A stretch of DNA of 64,000 bases from an uncultured Planctomycetota bacterium (GTDB lineage: Bacteria > Planctomycetota > Planctomycetia > Gemmatales > Gemmataceae), in contig CAWKHF010000005.1 of assembly GCA_963849325.1 (NCBI GenBank), forward strand, positions 64,001 through 128,000, in the 5' to 3' direction. Both the position numbers and the translations under genes were made by a program. The notes below the pieces were generated by a model. It did no database searches. It had not been told where the DNA came from and was given only the letters and a program-made list of their open reading frames with translations. Shown here in pieces: positions 1 through 9,066 of this stretch. The first letter of the stretch is position 1; the number at the start of each line of letters is the position of its first letter.

Positions 1-51
1 CTCGCCAAGCCCTCGGTTGAATTCGGCGGATGAGTCTGCATCCCCGTCGGG

Positions 52-70
52 GCCGAACGTCACAGATCAG
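52..70 (-). other. attC site, distal half (L'/R'), separated from its proximal half by a 241-bp insert
   Basis: Minus strand reads CTgatctgtgacGTTCGGC, which completes the attC arm ending at 312 (...gctgCT). Confidence 0.75.
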
Positions 71-311
71 GTAGCCCATTCGATGGTCGCCGTGGGGCGA
101 TACATTCCAGGTAAAAGCTTGGAGAGAGCCGAGCGTTGAAGTGCCGAGGAGGAGTAGTTGGCGAGTCGCCGAGAGCAGGGTAGTCGGTAGGCACGGTGGG
201 TCAGACGGTGGCACGGAACAATTGCGACCATTGGGGTCGCAAAGGAGCAATGACCGTGCGCACCCAGCGTGCCGGCATCCTCACCAAAATTGCTCTTGCA
301 TTGCTTAGAAA
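71..311. mobile_element. Non-autonomous 241-bp insert in attC (MITE-like or IS remnant)
   Basis: Flanked by AG at 69-70 and 312-313 at the same attC position as the IS1111 insertion. No transposase ORF. Long nested hairpin at 190-273. Confidence 0.6.
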
Positions 312-391
312 AGCAGCCGGGCGGCCAGGAGGGACTGCATGTCGCGCGAAACCAGAATGGCCGCCCGGTCTGCTGAAGCGGTTTGTTCGGC
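312..391 (-). other. attC site, proximal part (R'', L'', stem)
   Basis: Minus strand GCCGAAC-aaacc-gcttcagcagac-cgggcggcca...tggccgcccg-gctgct, directly after the stop of the 398-883 gene. Confidence 0.85.
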
Positions 392-397
392 CCTCCG

Positions 398-883
398 CTA
401 CCCGATCAAAGATGCTTTCCCTCTGAATTTCCGCTCTGGCCCGAGTAGAAGCGAGATGCCGTGCCCAGCGAACAGGTCGCCGCACGAGTAATACCAGGAC
501 GCGCTGCCGTCGTGGTACAGGTTGATCCCACTCGGGCGGATGTTGGCCAGGAACTCTGCCCGGTTCATGGGCGGGGTGCCCTCTTCGGGATCCTCGTCCG
601 CCCACACCTCGTTGTAACAGTTGAGTAGGTCGTCAGCCACCCTCGCCCGGACTTCCGGTTCGGCCTCTCGTGCCCAGGCGAGGTACTCGGCGCCTACCGT
701 GAACAACTCGGCCGGCTCGGCTCCCGCCCACTCAGCCTCGGCCACGATGGAGAAGCTGAGCGGATACCCAGGGACCAGTTCGACTTCGGTCCCCCAGGAG
801 TTCACCCGGTCGTCCCACTGAATCTGACCCAGGACAGGGTGATTGCGTGTCCGCTTGGCCATCAGAGCCTCCGCTTCCACCAC
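398..883 (-). CDS. Integron cassette protein, DUF2262-like
   Basis: 161-aa ORF between two attC sites. The C-terminal WYYSCGDLFAGHGI resembles the DUF2262 motif. Confidence 0.6.
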   Translation of the reverse strand: MVEAEALMAKRTRNHPVLGQIQWDDRVNSWGTEVELVPGYPLSFSIVAEAEWAGAEPAELFTVGAEYLAWAREAEPEVRARVADDLLNCYNEVWADEDPEEGTPPMNRAEFLANIRPSGINLYHDGSASWYYSCGDLFAGHGISLLLGPERKFRGKASLIG

Positions 884-1027
884 TATGGCTATCCGTCATC
901 TGTGCTATCCGGCACCCAACGACAATGCTCGACTGCCGAGTTGGATGGGGCGCCGCAAGCCGAACCCCATCGTGCCGGCCTGGAGACCAGTCCGGAAGCA
1001 AAACGCACATGGGCGAGGGGTCAAGTG

Positions 1028-1124
1028 GCCGAACGACGAAGCTCACCTGCCCGGCGGGCGCTGGGAGCGATGACCCTGGAACAGCCTCCATGCCCGCCGG
1101 GTCAGGTGCAGCGCCTGGTTAGCC
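1028..1124 (-). other. Intact attC site (97 bp)
   Basis: Minus strand GGCTAAC caggc gctgcacctgac ccggcggg...cccgccgg gcaggtgagc ttcgtc GTTCGGC. R''/L''/L'/R' boxes with an extrahelical G. Confidence 0.92.
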
Positions 1125-1128
1125 GAAA

Positions 1129-1655
1129 TCATAGCGACTGAAAGACCAAGGTGGAATCCACTTTCAGGATTGTGCCGTTGACGCTTCCGGCTCGGGCTAC
1201 AACCTGGCCGAGCGAACCGTCCGGCGCTTGAGCGTCCCCTCCACCACAATCCCGAGTTTGGAAGGAGCGCCCTTTCCTACTGTCGCGGCCACCAGTTCGC
1301 CATCGATCAAAAGGTGCACGCGTCGCCACACATACCATTCTCTGTAACCCACTTCGATCGTGTGTCCCCCAGACTGAAGAAGAAACCAGCGGTTGGATAG
1401 CGCGTAGCAAGACAGAACGGAGTCAATCGAGATCCGGCACCGGCAGCCCCAGCCGACGCGAACATGCACCGGATGGTTATCCCTGCCGGCATGACCAGCT
1501 TGCGCCGTCAGCGCGATCGGGAGGAGATGCCAGCCGCGCTGTTCGGCCGCTAAAACACCATCCAGATACAGGCGATCCCAAGGGTGGGAGTCGCGCCGCA
1601 TTTGGATGTGCGCCTCGTGCCCTTCCCACCGATAAGTCCACTCAATAACCGACAT
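1129..1655 (-). CDS. Integron cassette hypothetical protein (probable frameshift near 1230)
   Basis: ORF 1197-1655 apparently continues in the frame ending at 1129, next to the attC R''. Confidence 0.6.
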
Positions 1656-1687
1656 AGTTGCGATTACGGTGAAGAACGTCCAGCATC

Positions 1688-1705
1688 GGCTAACACCAAG
1701 CTCAG
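1688..1705 (-). other. attC distal half (L'/R'), split by IS1111
   Basis: Minus strand CTgagcttggtGTTAGCC. GTTAGCC is complementary to the R'' GGCTAAC at 1118-1124. Confidence 0.85.
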
Positions 1706-1797
1706 ATGGGGATGATGCCGGGTTGCTCCCACCGACGACAAGCCGGCGGTATTATGGAGTAACCCAGTAAAAGCCACCCCATCTGGAGCAACCCGAC

Positions 1798-2811
1798 ATG
1801 TCCACCACTCTACCACTGTTCGTCGGACTGGACTACTCCCAACACGCCGTCCAACTGTGCGTCTTGGACCCCACGGGTCAGGTCTTGTGTAACCGCGCCG
1901 TGCCTGACTCCGCCGACGCCATCGATCAGGCCGTCCGGCGATTCGGTGCCGTCCGCGGCGCCGCCCTGGAAGCCTGCACCGGAGCCGCCAACCTCGCCGA
2001 AGAACTCGCCGACCGCTACGCCTGGCCCGTCCACCTCGCCCACCCCGGATTCGTCAGCCGCATGAAGCAGTCGCCCGACAAAACCGACTTCTCCGACGCC
2101 CGCGTCCTGGCCGACCTCGAACGGGTCGGCTACCTACCCCGCGTCTGGATTGCACCCCAGCAGCTCCGTGAACTCCGTACCCTGGTCCGCGACCGCCAAC
2201 AACTGGCCGCCCAGCGACGCAATCTCAAGCTCCAGATCGGTGCCCTGCTACGGGAACACCGCCTACGCTGTAGCCACAACCGCTGGACGCGGGCCTGGCA
2301 CGCCTGGCTGGAGCATCAAGCTCAACTGCCCGAACAAGCACGCTGGGTCATGCAACAACGCCTGCGTCGGCTGGCCTGGATCGTCCAGGAGATCCGCACC
2401 GTCGAAGAACGTCTCCAACAAGTCACCGCTGTGGACGGCACCGTAACTTGGCTGCGGACGATCAAGGGCATTGGTCCGGTCACCGCCTGGACGTTGCGGG
2501 CCGAGATCGGTCGCTTCGACCGTTTCCGAACCGGCAAGCAGTTGGCGCGGTACTGCGGCCTGACGCCGTGCAACCGCTCCTCGGGCGTGCGTGAGGCCGA
2601 CGCCGGTTTGATCCGGGCGGCCAATCCCGAACTGCGTCGCGTGCTCATCGAGGCGGCCTGGCTGTTGGCTCGTCTGCAGCCGCGTTGGCGGCAACTGGCC
2701 GAGCGTCTGAAGGCACGGGGCAAACCGAGTACGGTGGTGATAGCGGCCGTGGCCAACCGCTTCGTGCGTTGGTTGTACCACGAAGGAGTCCGCCAACAGG
2801 CGGCGGCCTGA
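1798..2811 (+). CDS. IS110 family transposase (DEDD RuvC-like)
   Basis: Motifs FVGLDY, ALEAC, KTDFSDARVLA, GIGPVTA, YCGLTPCNRSSG. Intact 337 aa. Confidence 0.95.
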   Translation: MSTTLPLFVGLDYSQHAVQLCVLDPTGQVLCNRAVPDSADAIDQAVRRFGAVRGAALEACTGAANLAEELADRYAWPVHLAHPGFVSRMKQSPDKTDFSDARVLADLERVGYLPRVWIAPQQLRELRTLVRDRQQLAAQRRNLKLQIGALLREHRLRCSHNRWTRAWHAWLEHQAQLPEQARWVMQQRLRRLAWIVQEIRTVEERLQQVTAVDGTVTWLRTIKGIGPVTAWTLRAEIGRFDRFRTGKQLARYCGLTPCNRSSGVREADAGLIRAANPELRRVLIEAAWLLARLQPRWRQLAERLKARGKPSTVVIAAVANRFVRWLYHEGVRQQAAA

Positions 2812-2835
2812 CGGATAGTGACAAGGCGTTGTCAT

Positions 2836-2990
2836 TGTCGGGGAAGTTCCTGAGCGGTTGCGGGTGTGCTCGGCCGGCTGCTGGGGTTTAATCCTCGCGC
2901 TCAGATGGGGCAGCCCGCAACCTTTCTTCGCATCCCATTTGGGCAGGGTCTTGAACCCACGCTCGGATAAGAAGCATGGGAGCCCCGACA
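2836..2990 (+). ncRNA. Putative bridge RNA / seekRNA of the IS1111 element
   Basis: Closing stem tgtcgggg/ccccgaca. The inner stem ggttgcggg/cccgcaacc encloses a loop with gccggctgct and gctcag, which match the two sides of the attC insertion site. Confidence 0.75.
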
Positions 2991-3156
2991 GCGTTGGCGT
3001 CCTGCCGAAGATTTCGCCGCCTCCGTGCGGCGACCAGGGGCGCTGATTGCCGCCCCCTGGACCCCCGGCTAGCCTCTCTCTGTTCCGGGAGGAAGAGAGG
3101 AGACTAACGCCGAGAAAAGGTGATTTTCCTCTTGACGAGTGGCCTGGCATCATAGA

Positions 3157-3239
3157 AGCAGCCGGCTCACGCGGAATTGGCGTTATGACTCGGAGAGCCG
3201 CCTATCGCGTGGCCGGTCTGCTGCAGCGCCTGGTTCGCA
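3157..3239 (-). other. attC proximal part, split by IS1111
   Basis: Minus strand TGCGAAC caggc gctgcagcagac cggccacgcg...cgcgtgagccg gctgCT. Confidence 0.85.
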
Positions 3240-3305
3240 TCCTCGCAGGGTTCCCCTGCACCACAATGCCAGGAACTTGGGGCGAGACTCGCTTATCCTA
3301 CCTCC

Positions 3306-3494
3306 GGTGTCCGGTGTCGATGTCCGACATGCTTCTGGTGCTGAGAGGCTTTGCGCTCCGCCCGCTGGTTCGACTGGACCGGGGAGCGATTTTCGGCCCA
3401 CTCGTTTGGTGACGACCGCCTACGGCCTTCGACGCCGTCGCGGTCGATCCCGTTGGGACGGCTGGTGCCCGTGCCGACTCCCCCACCGGACACC
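3306..3494 (+). ncRNA. Putative bridge RNA upstream of the second IS110 transposase
   Basis: Perfect 11-bp closing stem ggtgtccggtg/caccggacacc enclosing several hairpins. The position matches IS110-group bridge RNAs. Confidence 0.45.
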
Positions 3495-3528
3495 CTGGTT
3501 CCCCAATCCCCCTATTGTGGAGGCTCCC

Positions 3529-5011
3529 GTGTCCGACTGCAAGACCCCACCACGCGACGCCCGTAAACCGCAAACGCCATCGGTGGCCGCGACCGCCAAC
3601 GAACTACGCCGCGCCGCCCGCCACGCTGAAAAGACCCGACGTGACGCCCAGGAGTGCGCCAAGCTGGTCTCGATGCCGGTGCAGCATGCTCACGCCGCCG
3701 GCATCGACGCTGGCGACGTCAGCCACTGGGCCTGCGTCGAATCCACCCCCGACGACAGCGACGCCGTCCGCGAGTTCCCCGCTCATACCGCCGGGCTGCG
3801 GCAATTGGTCGCCTGGCTACGCCAATGCGGCGTCACCACCGTGGCCGTGGAGGCCACCGGCGTCTACGCCCACGTCCTGTTTTTGACTCTGCTGGAAGCC
3901 GGCTTCGTGGTGGTGATGACCGCACCGCAGTTTGCCCGCCAGATCAAGGGCCGGCCCAAGACCGACAAGCGTGACTGCCAGTGGATTCAACGCCTGCACA
4001 AGCACGGCCTGTTGCCGGCCATCTTCCAGCCCGACGAGGCCACCCAGACCCTGCGCGACTACGTCCGCCAACGCGCCAACCTGGTCCGCCTGTCCGGCCA
4101 GCACATCCAGAGGATGCAGAAGGCGCTGCAACTGATGAACCTCAAGCTGACCGGCGTGCTGGGCGACGTCACCGGCGTAACGGGGCTAAAGATCATCCGG
4201 GCCATCCTCGCCGGCCAACGCGACCCGCAGCAACTGGCCAGGCTGCGCGACCGCCGCTGCCGGCACAGCGTTGCGGACATCGCCCAGGCGTTGGATGGCC
4301 GCTATCGCCCCGAGCATATAACCGAGCTGCGCTGTTGCCTGACCTTGTGGGAGAAGTATCAGGAGGTGATCGGTGAGCTGGACGAAGCCATCGACGCCCA
4401 CCTGCGGAGCATGCGTCGGCAGACCGCGTTGCCCCCACTGCCGCCCAAGCCCCGCATGCGTGGCCGCAAGCCGCACGACCCACGCTTTGACGTGCGCCAG
4501 GCGTTGTACTTGGCCACGGGCGTAGACCTGACGGCGATCGAAGGCATTGACGAGGTGCATGCGTTGACGTTGGTCAGTGAGCTGGGTTGGGACTTCACGA
4601 AATGGCCGACGGTCAAGCAGTTCACCTGCTGGCTGGGGCTGTGCCCCAACTGGCACAAGACCGGGGGTAAGGTGCAAGTCCAGCGCGACGCGTAAGGGCA
4701 AGGGGCGTGCGGCGCGGACGTTGTGTTTGGCGGCCTGGAGTCTGATGCGGAGCAAGAGCTATTTGGGAGCCTATCTGCGTCGTCAGCGTTCGCGTCTGGG
4801 TGCGCCCAAGGCGATCACGGCGACGGCGCACAAGCTGGCGCGGATCGTGTACCACTTGGTGCGTTACGGCATGGCCTACGTCAAGCAAACGGAGGCGGTC
4901 TACGCCGAGCAGGTGCGGGCGCGTCTGGAGAAGCAGTTGCGTCGTCGTGCGATGGAGCTGGGCTTCGAGCTGCGGAAGGTGGAGGCGCCGCCGATGCCGG
5001 CGGTGACCTAG
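3529..5011 (+). CDS. IS110 family transposase (frameshift near 4675)
   Basis: AAGIDAG, AVEATGVY, KTDKRDCQWIQRL, WLGLCP, then KAITATAHKLARIVY in the second frame. Confidence 0.9.
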
Positions 5012-5203
5012 ATTCGCGTTGGCGTTGGCAGTCATTGACAGTGAGGTGAGACGGAAACAGCGGAGAGGACAAGGGCGAAGGGCGGAAGGGAGCGGAGACG
5101 GTGCGCGCCGGCGGAGGCCCATCGCAGCAGGGAGCTACGTCACCGTCGCGTCACCTTCCGAGGAAGTTCCTGGGGCGGCCGTATTCTCTGACCCGGCAAG
5201 CCA

Positions 5204-5342
5204 TTACGGCCTGAAGAGACCGCGAACCTCTCTCTTGAGCTGCGCTGCCTTTCCCTCATACTTGGAGTACGAATACAACCAACCTTTGTATTCTCCGAAA
5301 CTAATCCGGCCCTCCTCCTCGTCAACGTCGAGAGGATTCATA
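5204..5342 (-). pseudogene. 3' fragment of an interrupted cassette gene
   Basis: Minus frame MNPLDVDEEEGRISFGEYKGWLYSYSKYEGKAAQLKREVRGLFRP*, lower GC, abutting the IS end. Confidence 0.45.
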
Positions 5343-6675
5343 GACTCAGTAGTTTCCGGTGAGTGTGAATTATGATACCATTCCCCAACTCATTCATACA
5401 TCCGATGTTCCGTGGCGATTTCATCGTGGATTCCCAAATGGGCTTCGGCCCAGTGTTGCAACCACACCAGCATCTTGCGAAAGCTCAAACGCCCCAGGTC
5501 GATCCGCCGACCGCCTCGCTGACGACGCGCCAACACCTGCCCATGCAACCACACCCAGACGTTGCGCAAGAGCAACGCCACCCCCACGTACAACAAACGC
5601 AGCAGCGGATCGCGCGTACACGTCCGAATCCGCGCCTGGTGCATCTGACGGTAACTCGTCTCGATGGCGAACCGACTCCGGTACGTCTCCTTCACCCACG
5701 TATACGACGACGGACGCAACGGCCCACCGAAGGCATAGACCAACGCCTCACGACCATGCCGTCCACGCTCGCCCCGCCGGTTGCGGCACTTCACGCACAC
5801 CGCGAACCGCGCCCGACGTTTGCTGGCATTGGTCATGGTGTACTGCCCCCAACCGCTCCGCTTGCACCCGGCGAAGACTCGGCTGCCCGAAGGCCCCTTG
5901 GGGTGGTCAGCCTTGCGGCCCCGCAACACCAACGGCATCAGCCACGCGTAGCGGGCGCTTTGCAAGTAGCGGATGACGTCCACGCTGCAAAACCCCCGAT
6001 CCAGCAGCAGATAACGCGGTCGGACACCGCCCTGGGCCGCTTGCCGCAACAGGCGTTGCAGCACGACGGGTAAGGCATCGTGGCGGTTCACCGTCGTCAG
6101 GGCAACCGTGAAGCGTCGTCCTTTGCGGAGGACGTAGGCGGTGGCGTAGGCGTGGAAGTGGCTGGTGCCACTCTTGGCCTGGCCGCGATAGATCTCGTCG
6201 GGTTGGTGCAAGGGTTTGCCGTGGTAAGGCAGCAGGGTGAGGTCAATGGCCAGGGGTTGGCGATGGCGACGTAAGGCGTGGGGCAGGTCGCCTTGCAGGG
6301 CGCGGTTGAGCCGGCGTTGTAATTCGGCGTAGGTGGGCAGGGTGGCCAGCAAGGCATCGTGGGCGGCGCTGTCGGAGGGAGCATCGCGGAGGGTGGCGCA
6401 GGCAGCGGCCAGGGAGATGATGCGGCTGGCGGCATAGAAGAGGACGGTCCACAGGGTATCGGTGGTGCATTTGCGGCCGTGGTCTGGCAGGCGGAGATGC
6501 TTTTGGATGCGCCAGGCGGCGTGGGCCTGGACGTGGGCGGGGGTGAGGGTATACTGCCGAGGTCGCATGGCTTCCTCCTGAAATGTCCTTGGTAGCACAA
6601 GTCATTATCAGGAGGAGCCTTGCGATTGCCCTCTACACCTTTTGTCGTTCCGCCCGAACCGGAAACTACTGAGGC
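5343..6675 (-). mobile_element. ISH3-like (IS4 superfamily) insertion sequence
   Basis: 18-bp terminal inverted repeats gactcagtagtttccggt / accggaaactactgaggc (1 mismatch), TA on both sides. Confidence 0.88.
5390..6568 (-). CDS. ISH3-family DDE transposase
   Basis: LAIDLTLLPYHG, AKSGTSHFHAYAT, LLLDRGF, YRSRFAIETSYR (YREK-like). Confidence 0.88.
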   Translation of the reverse strand: MRPRQYTLTPAHVQAHAAWRIQKHLRLPDHGRKCTTDTLWTVLFYAASRIISLAAACATLRDAPSDSAAHDALLATLPTYAELQRRLNRALQGDLPHALRRHRQPLAIDLTLLPYHGKPLHQPDEIYRGQAKSGTSHFHAYATAYVLRKGRRFTVALTTVNRHDALPVVLQRLLRQAAQGGVRPRYLLLDRGFCSVDVIRYLQSARYAWLMPLVLRGRKADHPKGPSGSRVFAGCKRSGWGQYTMTNASKRRARFAVCVKCRNRRGERGRHGREALVYAFGGPLRPSSYTWVKETYRSRFAIETSYRQMHQARIRTCTRDPLLRLLYVGVALLLRNVWVWLHGQVLARRQRGGRRIDLGRLSFRKMLVWLQHWAEAHLGIHDEIATEHRMYE

Positions 6676-6795
6676 TAGATGTCGAACGGTGTCGATCCAG
6701 TTTATCGGGTCGAGGTCGAACTCAAGGTTAAAGAATCCGAATAGGTCGCGCAACGCCACTTTCCCCAAACTGCGTGGCCGTGATTGGTCTGGCAT
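6676..6795 (-). pseudogene. 5' fragment of the first cassette gene, cut by the IS
   Basis: RBS gagg then MPDQSRPRSLGKVALRDLFGFFNLEFDLDPINWIDTVRHL running into the IS end. Confidence 0.45.
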
Positions 6796-6868
6796 ACGAG
6801 TAGTTCCTCGTTGAGCGAGAGGTCAGCATCAGGTTCAGCCGCTCTCACGTCATGGGCAGCCCTCCGTG

Positions 6869-7035
6869 GCCGAACAAGTGATTAGGGTGCGCGCGTGCCC
6901 TAATTCGGAACCCTTGTGCCAGGGGTATTCGGCGCAAAGGATTTCCCTGGCAAGGGTCGCCGCATTTACCACCGCCGTTATCTCAATATTAGGGTGTGCG
7001 CCTAAGCAGGTGCTTAGGGCGCGCACGCCCTAAGC
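6869..7035 (-). promoter_or_regulatory. Putative attI region with three TTAGGG...CCTAA palindromic sites
   Basis: Minus strand ccctaatcactt GTTCGGC at the array start. Related palindromes at 6881-6904, 6988-7007 and 7012-7035, just upstream of the divergent intI. Confidence 0.65.
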
Positions 7036-7165
7036 CGGATTGAAACCCCACGGTGTCTCGCCGTCAAGCGAAATCTTAACCCGTGCCGTTTTTTTTCTTT
7101 CCTCCGTGTCTATCCAGGCGTACACTCCTTCTTCAGGACGCATTTTCCACTTTGCGGAGTGTCTC

Positions 7166-7630
7166 ATGTCCACACCTCCTTCCCCTCCTCGACTCCTCGA
7201 TCTCGTCCGTCCGGTCGCCCAGACACGCTTCGGCCAGGACGGACCTGGAGAACGCTACGCTTGTTGGACGCGCTGCCTGATTCTCTTTCACGACAAACGT
7301 CATCCCCGCGACCTGTCGCCCGGCGACGTGGGGCGTTTCCTCGAACACGTCGCGCAGACCGAAAAAGATGCCTTGAATGCTCTGGAAGAAGCCCATACCG
7401 CCCTGACCTTTCTCTACCGCGACGTTCTCGGCCTGGCCATCGGCGAACTGCCCTGCCCCGAGCCGCCGCGTTTGCTCGATCGCCTCCGCCGCGCTTGCCG
7501 CGTTCGTCAATACTCGCCCCGTACCGAAGACTGTTACACCGAGTGGGCCACGCGCTTCATCCGCTTTCACGGCCTGCGTCATTCCAACACGCTCACCGTC
7601 CGTCACGGCAAGGGCGCGGGGTCAGGTTAA
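7166..7630 (+). pseudogene. intI: Truncated integron integrase (duplicated N-terminal SAM-like domain, catalytic domain mostly deleted)
   Basis: PPRLLD twice and YSPRTEDCYTEWATRFIRFHGLRH (IntI N-terminus), joined directly to LTVRHGKG and a stop. Divergent from the cassette array. Confidence 0.85.
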
Positions 7631-7646
7631 ATTCTCTCGAAAAGAC

Positions 7647-7736
7647 GGAAAACCACGAATCACACGAATGAAAGAAAAGGCAACATTTCTCGGGGGTTAT
7701 TTTTATTCGTGTTATTCGTGTTATTCGTGGTTTTCC
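7647..7736. repeat. REP/MITE-like element with 9-nt-periodic inverted arms
   Basis: aaccacgaatcacacgaat ... attcgtgttattcgtgttattcgtggtt around an AT-rich core. Confidence 0.8.
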
Positions 7737-7754
7737 TCTTTATTGTGGTGGTTC

Positions 7755-9066
7755 TTAACTTCCCTTCAGCGAATTGAACACCAACCCACTGAGCAATTTC
7801 GGATAGAAATACGTCGATTTGGGCGGCATCTTCTCCAGGTTGCCGGCGATCTGCTCGACGTGGTGCATCGTGGCCGGCGGCACCAGCACGGCCAACTTAC
7901 AATCCTTCCGCACCACCGCGTCCGTCACCTCGCGCAGCAGATGCACGTACTTGCATTCGGGCTTGCCGCCAACCGTCTGCGGCAGCAGATGGTCGAGCAC
8001 GGCGACGTGCAGAACGCTGACGGCCAGGCCGCGCCAGGCGGCGCTGTGGTCGGCGGCGTGCTCGGCCATCAGCTGCCGGCGTGCGGAACCGCGCCGTCTG
8101 CCAGACGCCGTCGGCCACGGTGCCGAAGCCGAGCAGCTCCTGCGAGCCGTCCGCCTCGATCAACTCCCAGGTATCGCGGGCGCCCTGCTCGCCCTGACCG
8201 ACGCGCTCAAGCTGGAAGTGCTGGCCGAGGATCGCGGCCAGGCGGTCGGCGGTCACGTCGGGGAGGCCGGAGACGAGGCGGTGCGTCGGCAGGATGATGA
8301 GGCCGGGATCGCTCATGCTGACGAGCATCATCAGGATGAAATTCGCCGCGGCCTCGTCGTCGCGGACCTCGCCGGCGGCGCGGCGCTCTTCGAGGTAACG
8401 CAGGCCGGTCTCGTAGCGGTGATGGCCGTCGGCGATGAAGACCGGCTTGGGACCGAGCAGGCCGGTGACGGCGCTGACGACGTGCTGGTCGGTCACCGGC
8501 CAGAGACGGCTGACGACGCCGAGGTGGTCGGTCGCTTGCAGCGGCAGGCTGCGCGAGACCAGGGCGTCGAGGTGCTGGATGACCTCGTCGCCGGGGTCGG
8601 GGTAGAGGCCGAAGACCGGGCTGAGGTTCATGCCGGTGGCGTGGAACAGCCGTAAGCGGTCGGCCTTGGGGCCGGCCAGCGTCTCCTCGTGCGGATAGAT
8701 GCGGCCGGTGCCGAACGGCTCCAGGCGAACGCGGGCCAAGAAGCCGCGGCGCGTGTAGCGGCGGCCCTCGACCTCGAAGTCCTGGTAGTAGACGTACAGG
8801 CCGCGGGCCGAATCTTGCACGAGAATGTCGTCGCGCTGCCAGTCGCGCAGGAAGCGGGCGGCGCGGCTGTAGCGGTTGTCCGTCTCGTTGTCGCCTGGCT
8901 CCTCCTTGTTGAGGATGAGGCGGATGACGTTGTAGGGGTTTTGGTCGTAGAGGGCTTGCTGCAGGGCCGGGTCGATGACGTCGTAGGGCGGGGCGATGAC
9001 GTCGCTGAGGGCGCCGACGCGGCCCAGGTCGTAGCGGAAGGCGCGGAACGCACGAACGTCGGCCAT
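7755..9066 (-). CDS. DUF1015 family protein (frameshifted)
   Basis: APPYDVI, IYPHEET, FIADGHHRYET, and C-terminal MPPKSTYFYPKLLSGL in a second frame. Confidence 0.9.

Follow-up and report, generated by a model that had tools for sequence, protein, structure and literature searches.

A 241-bp insert that divides an attC-like site of genome G000 is very probably the solo right end of an RNA-guided IS110-family element, truncated at its 5′ side and belonging to a type that is represented by a complete copy on contig C7 of this genome. The window, meaning the whole stretch of 64,000 nucleotides that was analysed, comprises bases 64001-128000 of contig C5 in an assembly of 8.16 Mb that is 84.7% complete, and the insert occupies window positions 71-311. 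Such a solo right end is the relic of an element whose kind is already known, and its exact truncation is the sole unusual point.

Reading of the sequence placed an AG dinucleotide on either side of the insert, at 69-70 and at 312-313 (CT on the cassette strand). The plus strand thus runs in the order GGCCGAAC (51-58), GTCACAGATC (59-68), AG, insert, AG, CAGCCGGGCGGCC onward, and GTTCGGCC (385-392). The neighbouring small ORFs (398-883 and 1197-1655) are read from the minus strand, and on that strand an attC-like palindrome is broken as ...CCGGCTG-CT-insert-CT-GATC.... When positions 71-313 were excised in silico, the remaining 113 nt folded into an attC-like imperfect hairpin in which a symmetric 8-nt internal loop separates an outer stem of 9 bp from an inner stem carrying one extra-helical base. 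The energy of this restored site was -33.8 kcal/mol, compared with -21.3 ± 2.8 kcal/mol for 200 dinucleotide shuffles, none of which (0/200) was equally low. The site at 51-392 has the features of an attC: it forms an imperfect hairpin that contains an extra-helical base, its spacer is symmetric, and its outer repeats are inverse. The outer repeat GTTCGGC is one position off the attC consensus GTTRRRY. The preliminary description of this DNA had recognized an attC split at a CT/AG core, and this is confirmed by the flanking AGs and by the hairpin restored upon excision; its statement that the insert carries no transposase ORF also holds, as no ORF in 1-400 resembles a transposase. The span of 52-391 that it gave for the attC was short by one base at each end, the outer repeats actually running from 51 to 392. 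The site is composed as follows.

51-68, minus strand: 3′ arm of the attC-like site on the cassette strand, consisting of R′ (GTTCGGCC on the minus strand, 51-58), a spacer and the left target flank GTCACAGATC; read from the sequence, and folding with 314-392 after excision.
69-70, plus strand: left copy of the core dinucleotide AG (CT on the minus strand), exactly where homology to the full-length IS starts; from the start of the blastn alignment, with an internal AG at this column in 7/7 attC-clade elements.
312-313, plus strand: right copy of the core dinucleotide AG; read from the sequence, ...TAGAAA-AG terminating all 20/20 elements (here and below, hyphens mark element junctions).
314-392, minus strand: remainder of the attC-like site, with the right target flank CAGCCGGGCGGCC, the loop, the 5′ arm and R″ (GGCCGAAC on the minus strand, 385-392); from the sequence, the fold and the match to guide 1.

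The locus has the appearance of an integron or cassette array that has decayed, with 51-392 as its last attC. A 196-aa ORF on the plus strand (7040-7630) contains two stretches of the N-terminal SAM-like integrase domain (PF13495, E = 6.2e-24) without the catalytic domain, and no integron integrase above the TIGR02249 cut-off was found in the 84.7% complete genome. By splitting its 3′ arm, the 243 added bases should keep this attC from folding and should block recombination of its cassette. The neighbouring IS, at about 1700-3225 of the window, encodes a 337-aa IS110-family transposase and is present in four genome copies, all of which are flanked by ...AAC-N9-10 (ending GCTC) and AG on the left and by AG and CAGCCGGCTCACGCGG on the right; this shared flank pattern shows that the earlier observation, by which the insert lies at the core position used by that IS, is correct. 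Cassette-like ORFs were also seen on the minus strand to the left of the 196-aa ORF, with three IS elements between.

The origin of the insert was determined by comparison with the rest of the genome. When window 1-450 was searched by blastn against the whole genome, a single strong match was obtained beyond the self-match: window 69-318 aligned with C7:285725-285476 at 99.6% identity over 250 nt (249/250). The match on C7 lies in a complete IS110-family element and covers the final ~245 bp of its 3′ non-coding region. The sole mismatch between the fragment and the C7 copy is a T at window 72, which is common to relatives L036, L037 and L040 and is therefore a lineage variant rather than damage. 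Furthermore, an nhmmer search of the 8.16 Mb with a profile built from 20 non-coding regions found one full copy, on C7, and window 68-313 only. Homology to the window starts 139 nt past the stop codon of the C7 transposase, at an internal AG, and the first base of the fragment falls in alignment column 136, which holds the A of the AG by which the donor loop is closed. Of the two alternatives offered by the preliminary description, the second, a right-end remnant of another attC-targeting IS, is thus the one upheld, through the 99.6% identity to the 3′ end of C7 and, for the attC-targeting part, through close relatives of the C7 element that occupy attC-like sites with the same core and in the same orientation. 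That description had also named a single-copy sequence with no homologous ends elsewhere as evidence against both alternatives; the sequence is indeed single-copy as a fragment, and the other half does not apply, as homologous right ends exist. Finally, the plus frame VAHSMVAVGRYIPGKSLERAER (VAHSM...ERAER, followed by a stop), which had been considered as a transposase tail, lies within the non-coding region and in another frame and is therefore not such a tail: the C7 transposase ends 139 nt upstream in a different frame, and the stretch is RNA loop and hairpin sequence in which indels are not divisible by three.

The C7 element is ~1.77-1.8 kb long and is the sole full copy in the genome. 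It comprises a short left end (~40-85 nt on the upstream side), a 448-aa DEDD transposase and a ~380-nt 3′ non-coding region, its ends having been set by comparison with relatives. The transposase contains the DEDD_Tnp_IS110 (PF01548, E = 3.8e-08) and Transposase_20 (PF02371, E = 4.1e-12) domains. Among 267 genomes of the order, the transposase was detected at E <= 1e-60 in four (G000, G010, G189 and G200), and the 243-bp query matched five, G000 included. When metagenomes were scanned with an alignment of three transposases, 43 loci of 47-85% identity were obtained; motif matching yielded 19 two-ended metagenome candidates, 17 of which (1746-1877 bp) were retained, L045 and L068 being excluded from the alignment for ambiguous right ends or implausible length. 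An alignment of 20 non-coding regions was then composed of the C7 copy, one copy each from G189 and G010, and the 17 metagenome contigs, the G200 copy being omitted because its 3′ region is different or truncated. All 20 elements end in ...TAGAAA-AG and start with AG-T(G/T)GGCTATA, with the exception of L040, whose start is GTGGCTATA. AG occurs at both junctions of the 17 metagenome elements, of 12 two-ended genome copies (from C7, G189 and G010) and of the window fragment.

Seven elements, namely the C7 copy and six relatives with 79-85% transposase identity to it, constitute an attC clade. They are mostly located in attC-like sites, with ...GAAC-N8-10-(A/C)GCTC on the left and CAGCCGG, CAGCGG or CTGCCG on the right; L042 has a different left flank (...TAGACC) together with its own matching right-flank guide, and the right flank of L036 is unrelated. 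The other 13 elements mostly occupy the REP-like repeat AGCCC-AG-GGT(C/T) and close variants of it, and a few lie at other sequences.

The non-coding region consists, in order, of a target loop, a donor loop, a long hairpin, a subterminal repeat and the right end, and it is predicted to encode a bridge/seekRNA-like RNA. RNAalifold detected two loop modules across the 20 sequences. Module 1, the target loop, has a CCUUC/GAGGG closure and a small internal hairpin. Guide 1, on the 5′ strand of this loop, is reverse-complementary to AG together with the 5-6 right-flank bases next to it; guide 2, on the 3′ strand, reads as the final 5-6 left-flank bases followed by AG and T. Guide 1 matched its own insertion at a mean of 6.5/8 (n = 19; L041 was left out, its contig having no right flank) compared with 4.5/8 for non-self combinations (n = 334), scores of 8, 7, 6, 5 and 4 being reached by three, eight, five, two and one elements, respectively. 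The poorest matches were those of L036 (4/8), whose right flank is apparently unrelated, and of L051 and G010_b (5/8 each). For guide 2, the mean was 6.9/8 with the own insertion (n = 20) compared with 5.0 for non-self (n = 348), distributed as three elements with 8, 14 with 7, two with 6 and one with 4. The guides also fit at unusual targets, guide 2 in L046 TGGCGAGT, L049 TTGCGAGT, L052 TCCGAAGT and L059 CCGGCAGT, and guide 1 in L042 CTGCCGCT and L039 CCGCTGCT; these matches are convincing.

Both target guides lie upstream of the first base of the fragment, and the guides of its relatives were compared with its site. Guide 1 of C7, CGGCTGCT, is the exact complement (8/8) of window 312-319, that is, of AG plus CAGCCG, and the left flank of the insert, AGATC-AG, matches the clade guide 2 AGCTCAG at 6/7. 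In the C7 copy itself, guide 2 has CG at a place where AG is found in 6/6 relatives. Most other clade members for which an attC flank can be identified are oriented in the attC as the fragment is. The fragment therefore sits at a true target of the C7-type family, in the usual orientation.

The stems of module 2, the putative donor loop, show compensatory changes at pairs 120/208 (7 sequences), 132/198 (9) and 137/193 (7), the last of which closes the loop and is G-C in 7 elements and U-G in 13. Within this loop lie (N)AGCC(C/A)AUU, which is complementary to the left end and places UU opposite the AG core; a hairpin that likewise shows compensatory changes; and an invariant AAAAG that repeats the right end plus core. 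AGCCCA (AGCCCC in L040) is found with TGGGCT (GTGGCT in L040) in 7/7 attC-clade elements, and AGCCAA with TTGGCT in 13/13 others, a co-variation that tracks the two-clade split, with L040 as a partial case, and so represents nearly one evolutionary event. The fragment retains the two donor guides and the hairpin of the donor loop, together with the long hairpin, the subterminal repeat and the right end. It has lost the transposase, the left end and the entire target loop, as well as the 5′ strands of the basal stems of the donor loop, whose columns fall upstream of the fragment start. Because the transposase, left end and target loop are missing, the fragment is unable to move alone. Its parts are listed below.

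71-311, plus strand: the insert, distal 3′ non-coding region of an IS110-family element; 99.6% identity to C7:285476-285725, and nhmmer.
72-80, plus strand: right-donor guide (T)AGCCCA plus UU, reverse complement of the left end TGGGCT(A); from clade-wise co-variation with the left end.
82-106, plus strand: internal hairpin of the donor loop (GAUGGUCGC / GCGAU.ACAU); RNAalifold pairs 149-157/172-181 of alignment A2 with 2 compensatory pairs, and 98.6% of cells paired in alignment A3.
113-119, plus strand: left-donor-guide-like AAAAG (the letters of the right end plus core, ...AAA-AG), then CU closing the loop on AG 69-70; invariant in 20/20.
120-189, plus strand: orphaned 3′ strands of the donor-loop basal stems, and linker; A2 pairs 120-125/203-208 and 131-133/197-199.
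190-273, plus strand: long nested hairpin; from the folds (z = -4.57), with 78-96% of cells paired per helix within the clade.
274-280, plus strand: right copy of the subterminal inverted repeat, GGCATCC; from the sequence, GGCAT being nearly invariant in the 20 elements.
296-311, plus strand: -35-like TTGCAT (296-301) and right terminus TAGAAA (306-311); from the sequence.

In the full element, the left copy of the subterminal repeat, GGATGCC, lies ~17 nt inside the left end, and GGCATCC lies 32 nt from the right end. After joining of the two ends, TTG(A/C)CA or TTGCAT is placed 17 bp from the left-end TATAAG/TATAGG; this motif and its spacing suggest that the joined ends may act as a circle-junction promoter, a reading that draws on other IS110-family elements as presented in the accessible text of PMC12288879.

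The four nested helices that had been proposed for the long hairpin (190-195/268-273, 197-201/262-266, 211-216/254-259 and 222-229/235-242) all occur in the minimum-energy fold. The whole insert folded at -104.4 kcal/mol (z = -2.65) and the long hairpin by itself at -45.6 kcal/mol (z = -4.57), and in each case 0/200 shuffles were as good. Elements of the other clade have a hairpin of different sequence at the corresponding place, with z-scores of -5.6 to -8.4 in four members. In a pairing test on an alignment of the insert, seven clade members and two fragments from relatives, 90.1% of cells of the long and donor-loop hairpins were paired, compared with 30-43% when the partners were slid, a control that is generous because the structure was derived from the insert sequence; four pairs had changed on both sides. 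An Rfam search of window 1-8000 in evalue mode gave no match in 1-400, and its microRNA-like matches at a hairpin at 7634-7748 were judged to be chance.

Right-end fragments were also found in two genomes of the same genus, G104 and G101, where they are shorter and have no transposase within 1.5 kb. The G104 fragment (75 bp) is AG-flanked and lies at the identical core position of an attC-like site with both arms complete; relative L037 has an AG immediately before the base that matches the G104 break point. The G101 fragment (~91 bp) carries the true right end, flanked on its right by CAGC..., but its left junction shows no AG, and no clear attC is seen on its right side. No transposase homologue was found in G104 or G101 at E <= 1e-60, and as both assemblies are fragmented (about 380 contigs each), its absence is not established. 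The break points of the three fragments fall at alignment positions of about 138, 339 and 354, and two of them are exact at the target core. A search of the 267 genomes with a strict right-end pattern gave no new solo ends, returning the known copies and unrelated matches; the latter, in six other genomes (G173 and five of one genus), were set aside. No unit sharing both ends of the 241-bp insert was found in the 267 genomes.

These data also bear on the first alternative of the preliminary description, a mini-element mobilised in trans. In its present form, a non-autonomous element of ssr9 or MITE kind would have been put into the attC as a small circle by the C7 transposase and its RNA. The core dinucleotide on both sides, the intact target and the 8/8 guide match would suit it, as would the 99.6% identity to the full copy, by which the event would be recent; moreover, ISPpu9 circularises its 3′ module alone and isolated copies of ssr9 exist, as stated in the accessible text of PMC12288879. 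Nevertheless, this origin is improbable. The insert occurs once in 8.16 Mb despite 14 loose matches to an empty target, at least four of them with a GCTC/TCTC/GCCC left flank, and it has no target-guide loop. Its left end GTAGCCCATTC agrees with the true left end TGGGCTATAAG at 6/20, which is chance level, and no A′-type box is present; the donor guide therefore could not recognise the junction of a mini-circle, and with this mismatch movement in trans is unlikely. Furthermore, the 5′ strands of the donor-loop stems are missing, and the 241-bp stretch is an integral and conserved part of the non-coding region in 20/20 elements rather than an add-on. The fragments of G104 and G101 are broken at other positions, which also speaks against this origin. 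Contigs that reach position 69 run on into the full non-coding region (five loose ends in soil run X2 and one in metatranscriptome X20), and the left junction of the insert was in none of those six contigs.

A functional stand-alone RNA gene is very unlikely. Its product would be a donor-loop-only RNA that damps transposition, or its hairpin would serve as a terminator or stabiliser, and the fold stabler than shuffles, the intact donor-loop hairpin and both intact donor guides are in line with such a function. Two metatranscriptome runs contained related contigs over 69-225, which belong to relatives and may be DNA. Against this, no promoter was identified for it, the donor-loop basal stem is unable to form, and the 99.6% identity with the parent leaves no time in which selection could have shown. 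In addition, according to the accessible text of bioRxiv 10.1101/2025.10.25.684509, a donor-loop-only RNA of another IS110 element was inactive in direct transfer, with neither excision nor integration and no in vivo transposition colonies. A cassette or intergenic fragment joined by recombinase-independent deletion, with AG flanks by chance, hardly merits belief: AG is frequent and one of the three fragments (G101) has none at its left junction, but the right boundary is the exact right end common to 20 elements, the attC arm at the left boundary is complete to the base with symmetric 8-nt spacers, and the G104 fragment is equally exact.

For the truncated right end of a C7-type element, the junctions themselves suggest how it was made, probably by the element's own recombinase at AG dinucleotides and not by random deletion. 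A recombinase origin is favoured by the intact attC, the left junction at the core AG and the AG of the parent at the break; it is further favoured because a random deletion would rarely end at the last base of a target arm, and this was seen twice. AG dinucleotides are common, so that an AG at two break points weighs little in itself. By one route, an aberrant deletion would have joined the left junction of a once-complete resident copy to the internal AG. By another, the insertion would have been incomplete and 5′-truncated, which is conceivable under the top-strand/sequential-transfer pathways proposed for another IS110 element in the accessible text of bioRxiv 10.1101/2025.10.25.684509. 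A guide-directed reaction at a pseudo-site was considered and rejected. In register, the internal break matched the left-flank guide at 0-1/7 and the right-flank guide at 1/6; shifted by 1 nt, the site gives AGCC, which was judged insufficient, and the right end is also unmatched in register. As the internal site has no convincing guide match beyond AG, such a reaction is unsupported. Slippage via the inverted repeat formed by the left end and the donor guide was likewise rejected, its predicted junction lying 10 nt from the observed one. None of the public sequencing runs searched contains the locus (shares of words 0.04-0.07, best 0.07), and in four runs that were examined only IS relatives were present.

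In a more speculative and less probable reading, transposition of RNA-guided IS110-family elements would regularly yield exact 5′-truncated right ends as a by-product. The recombinase would connect an internal AG of the element with the left target half; alternatively, a top-strand or one-ended transfer would be finished short. The donor loop that the fragment retains could still bind the recombinase. We found no description of exact solo right ends in the IS1111-attC or the IS110/attC/integron-remnant literature, which is not proof of absence.

Insertion into attC sites is reportedly the habit of an IS1111-attC group (ISKpn4, ISPst6 and ISPa21), said to have been described by Tetu and Holmes in 2008 and by Post and Hall in 2009. 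Compared by description with its named members, the C7 type resembles this group in its orientation-specific insertion at a fixed position of one attC arm, which should disable the site, and differs from it in its planctomycete-like soil host and its transposase size class. The account of attC-targeting IS by Tetu and Holmes is said to be in line with a blocked site.

The C7 type also shares its basic organization with IS110/IS1111 elements such as IS621, ISEc11 and ISKpn4, as far as these are covered by the accessible texts of PMC11208160 and PMC11187229. Common to them are the DEDD transposase with a PF02371 C-terminal domain, the two-base core at both junctions and the subterminal inverted repeats; as in bridge RNA and seekRNA, the target loop is complementary to both target strands, and the putative donor loop shows sequence complementarity to the element ends. 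The C7 type is set apart from the systems in those texts by an additional long hairpin, which follows the donor loop and precedes the right end. Its non-coding region lies downstream with the top-strand-complementary guide first, as in the IS1111 type (accessible texts of PMC11187229 and PMC11208160), and its subterminal repeat GGATGCC/GGCATCC, at 7 bp, falls within the 7-17 bp of the IS1111 subgroup. The 448-aa transposase, however, is outside the 330-350 aa given for the IS1111 type in the accessible text of PMC11187229, and the C7 type is therefore filed under the IS110 family only, although it works like the IS1111 type. Unlike complete bridge-RNA elements, the object in the window is a fragment only.

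A transposase-free 3′ piece standing alone in the usual target, with AG boundaries, is likewise presented by ISPpu9/ssr9 of Pseudomonas putida KT2440, and the same study also describes a partly deleted remnant of the element (PMC12288879, accessible text). In that text, ssr9 is a separable add-on with its own A′ and B′ end-box copies, has several isolated copies and is dispensable for transposition, whereas the 241-bp piece is integral to the guide-RNA region, has no A′-like left box and occurs singly. Like solo ends and partial IS copies generally, it is a relic without transposase; unlike ordinary partial copies, its deleted side halts exactly at the target core and the target is left intact.

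The fragment has led to an attC-targeting, RNA-guided lineage of the IS110 family in planctomycete-like soil bacteria, in which co-variation with the flanks allows the two target guides and the donor loop to be read directly; we met no description of this lineage in the literature, although it was not searched for specifically. At the locus itself, the relic indicates that the terminal cassette of what looks like a decayed integron is probably locked by the insertion. The exact truncation, seen twice, hints at a testable side reaction of the recombinase. If exact right ends are indeed a by-product of transposition, such relics would be natural footprints of single-strand or sequential transfer, for which observations to date come solely from in vitro work and engineered E. 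coli assays.

The only full copy of the C7-type element, the RNA-guided IS110-family element whose truncated right end is studied here, lies on contig C7 of the same genome (locus L001/L022) and was compared with its relatives in A2, an alignment of 20 related non-coding regions. Guide 2, the target-loop strand equal to the left flank plus the AG core, reads AGCTCCGT in this copy (approximately 285780-285790; A2 columns 86-97), and the same columns read AGCTCAGT in all six of its close relatives. The core position of this left-target guide is thus occupied by CG and not AG in the contig C7 copy, and therefore, judging from the sequence, its target pairing may be impaired.

The surroundings of the contig C7 copy and of the right end under study contain the following features.

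Contig C7, locus L001 200-2026, minus strand: IS110-family transposase, 608 aa
Window 1700-3225: neighbouring IS110-family element with a 337-aa transposase
Window 3226-4700: third IS110-family element (ORF 3139-4695, 518 aa, PF01548 and PF02371)
Window 5390-6598, minus strand: DDE transposase (PF01609), 402 aa
Window 7040-7630: integrase fragment that has two stretches of N-terminal SAM-like domain and lacks the catalytic domain

The genome contains four copies of the neighbouring element at 1700-3225, each of which occupies an attC-like site at the same AG core. The 3′ region of this element carries CCGGCTGCT, a target guide identical to that of the C7-type element, despite very different transposases in the two elements. 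Part of the gene of this neighbouring element also occurs, as a 195-bp piece with 87% identity, directly left of the C7 element, which was inserted just upstream of the 608-aa transposase. The latter is a fusion with a C-terminal CHC2 zinc ribbon of the DnaG type (PF01807, E 4.3e-09), and contig C4 carries a copy at 89% DNA identity.

Within the window, the third IS110-family element starts where the second ends, and contig C1 contains a 100% match to the first 175 bases of this third element. The DDE transposase separates the IS110-type elements from the integrase fragment, which is directly followed by a perfect-looking, AT-rich hairpin of approximately 110 nt (7634-7748; 37% G+C). Rfam matches of this hairpin to plant microRNA precursors were below threshold and were attributed to chance.

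In G189, another genome of the order, right ends of a related element are paired face-to-face, approximately 160-200 bp apart, on contigs C11 (389697-389935) and C15 (41668-41945); therefore, each pair represents two element copies inserted tail to tail in neighbouring REP-like repeats.

All 20 aligned elements carry TTGACA or TTGCAT at the right end and TATAAG, TATAGG, or TATAGA at the left end, and in a circle junction the two motifs would be spaced by 17 bp. This motif pair likely constitutes a junction promoter for the transposase.
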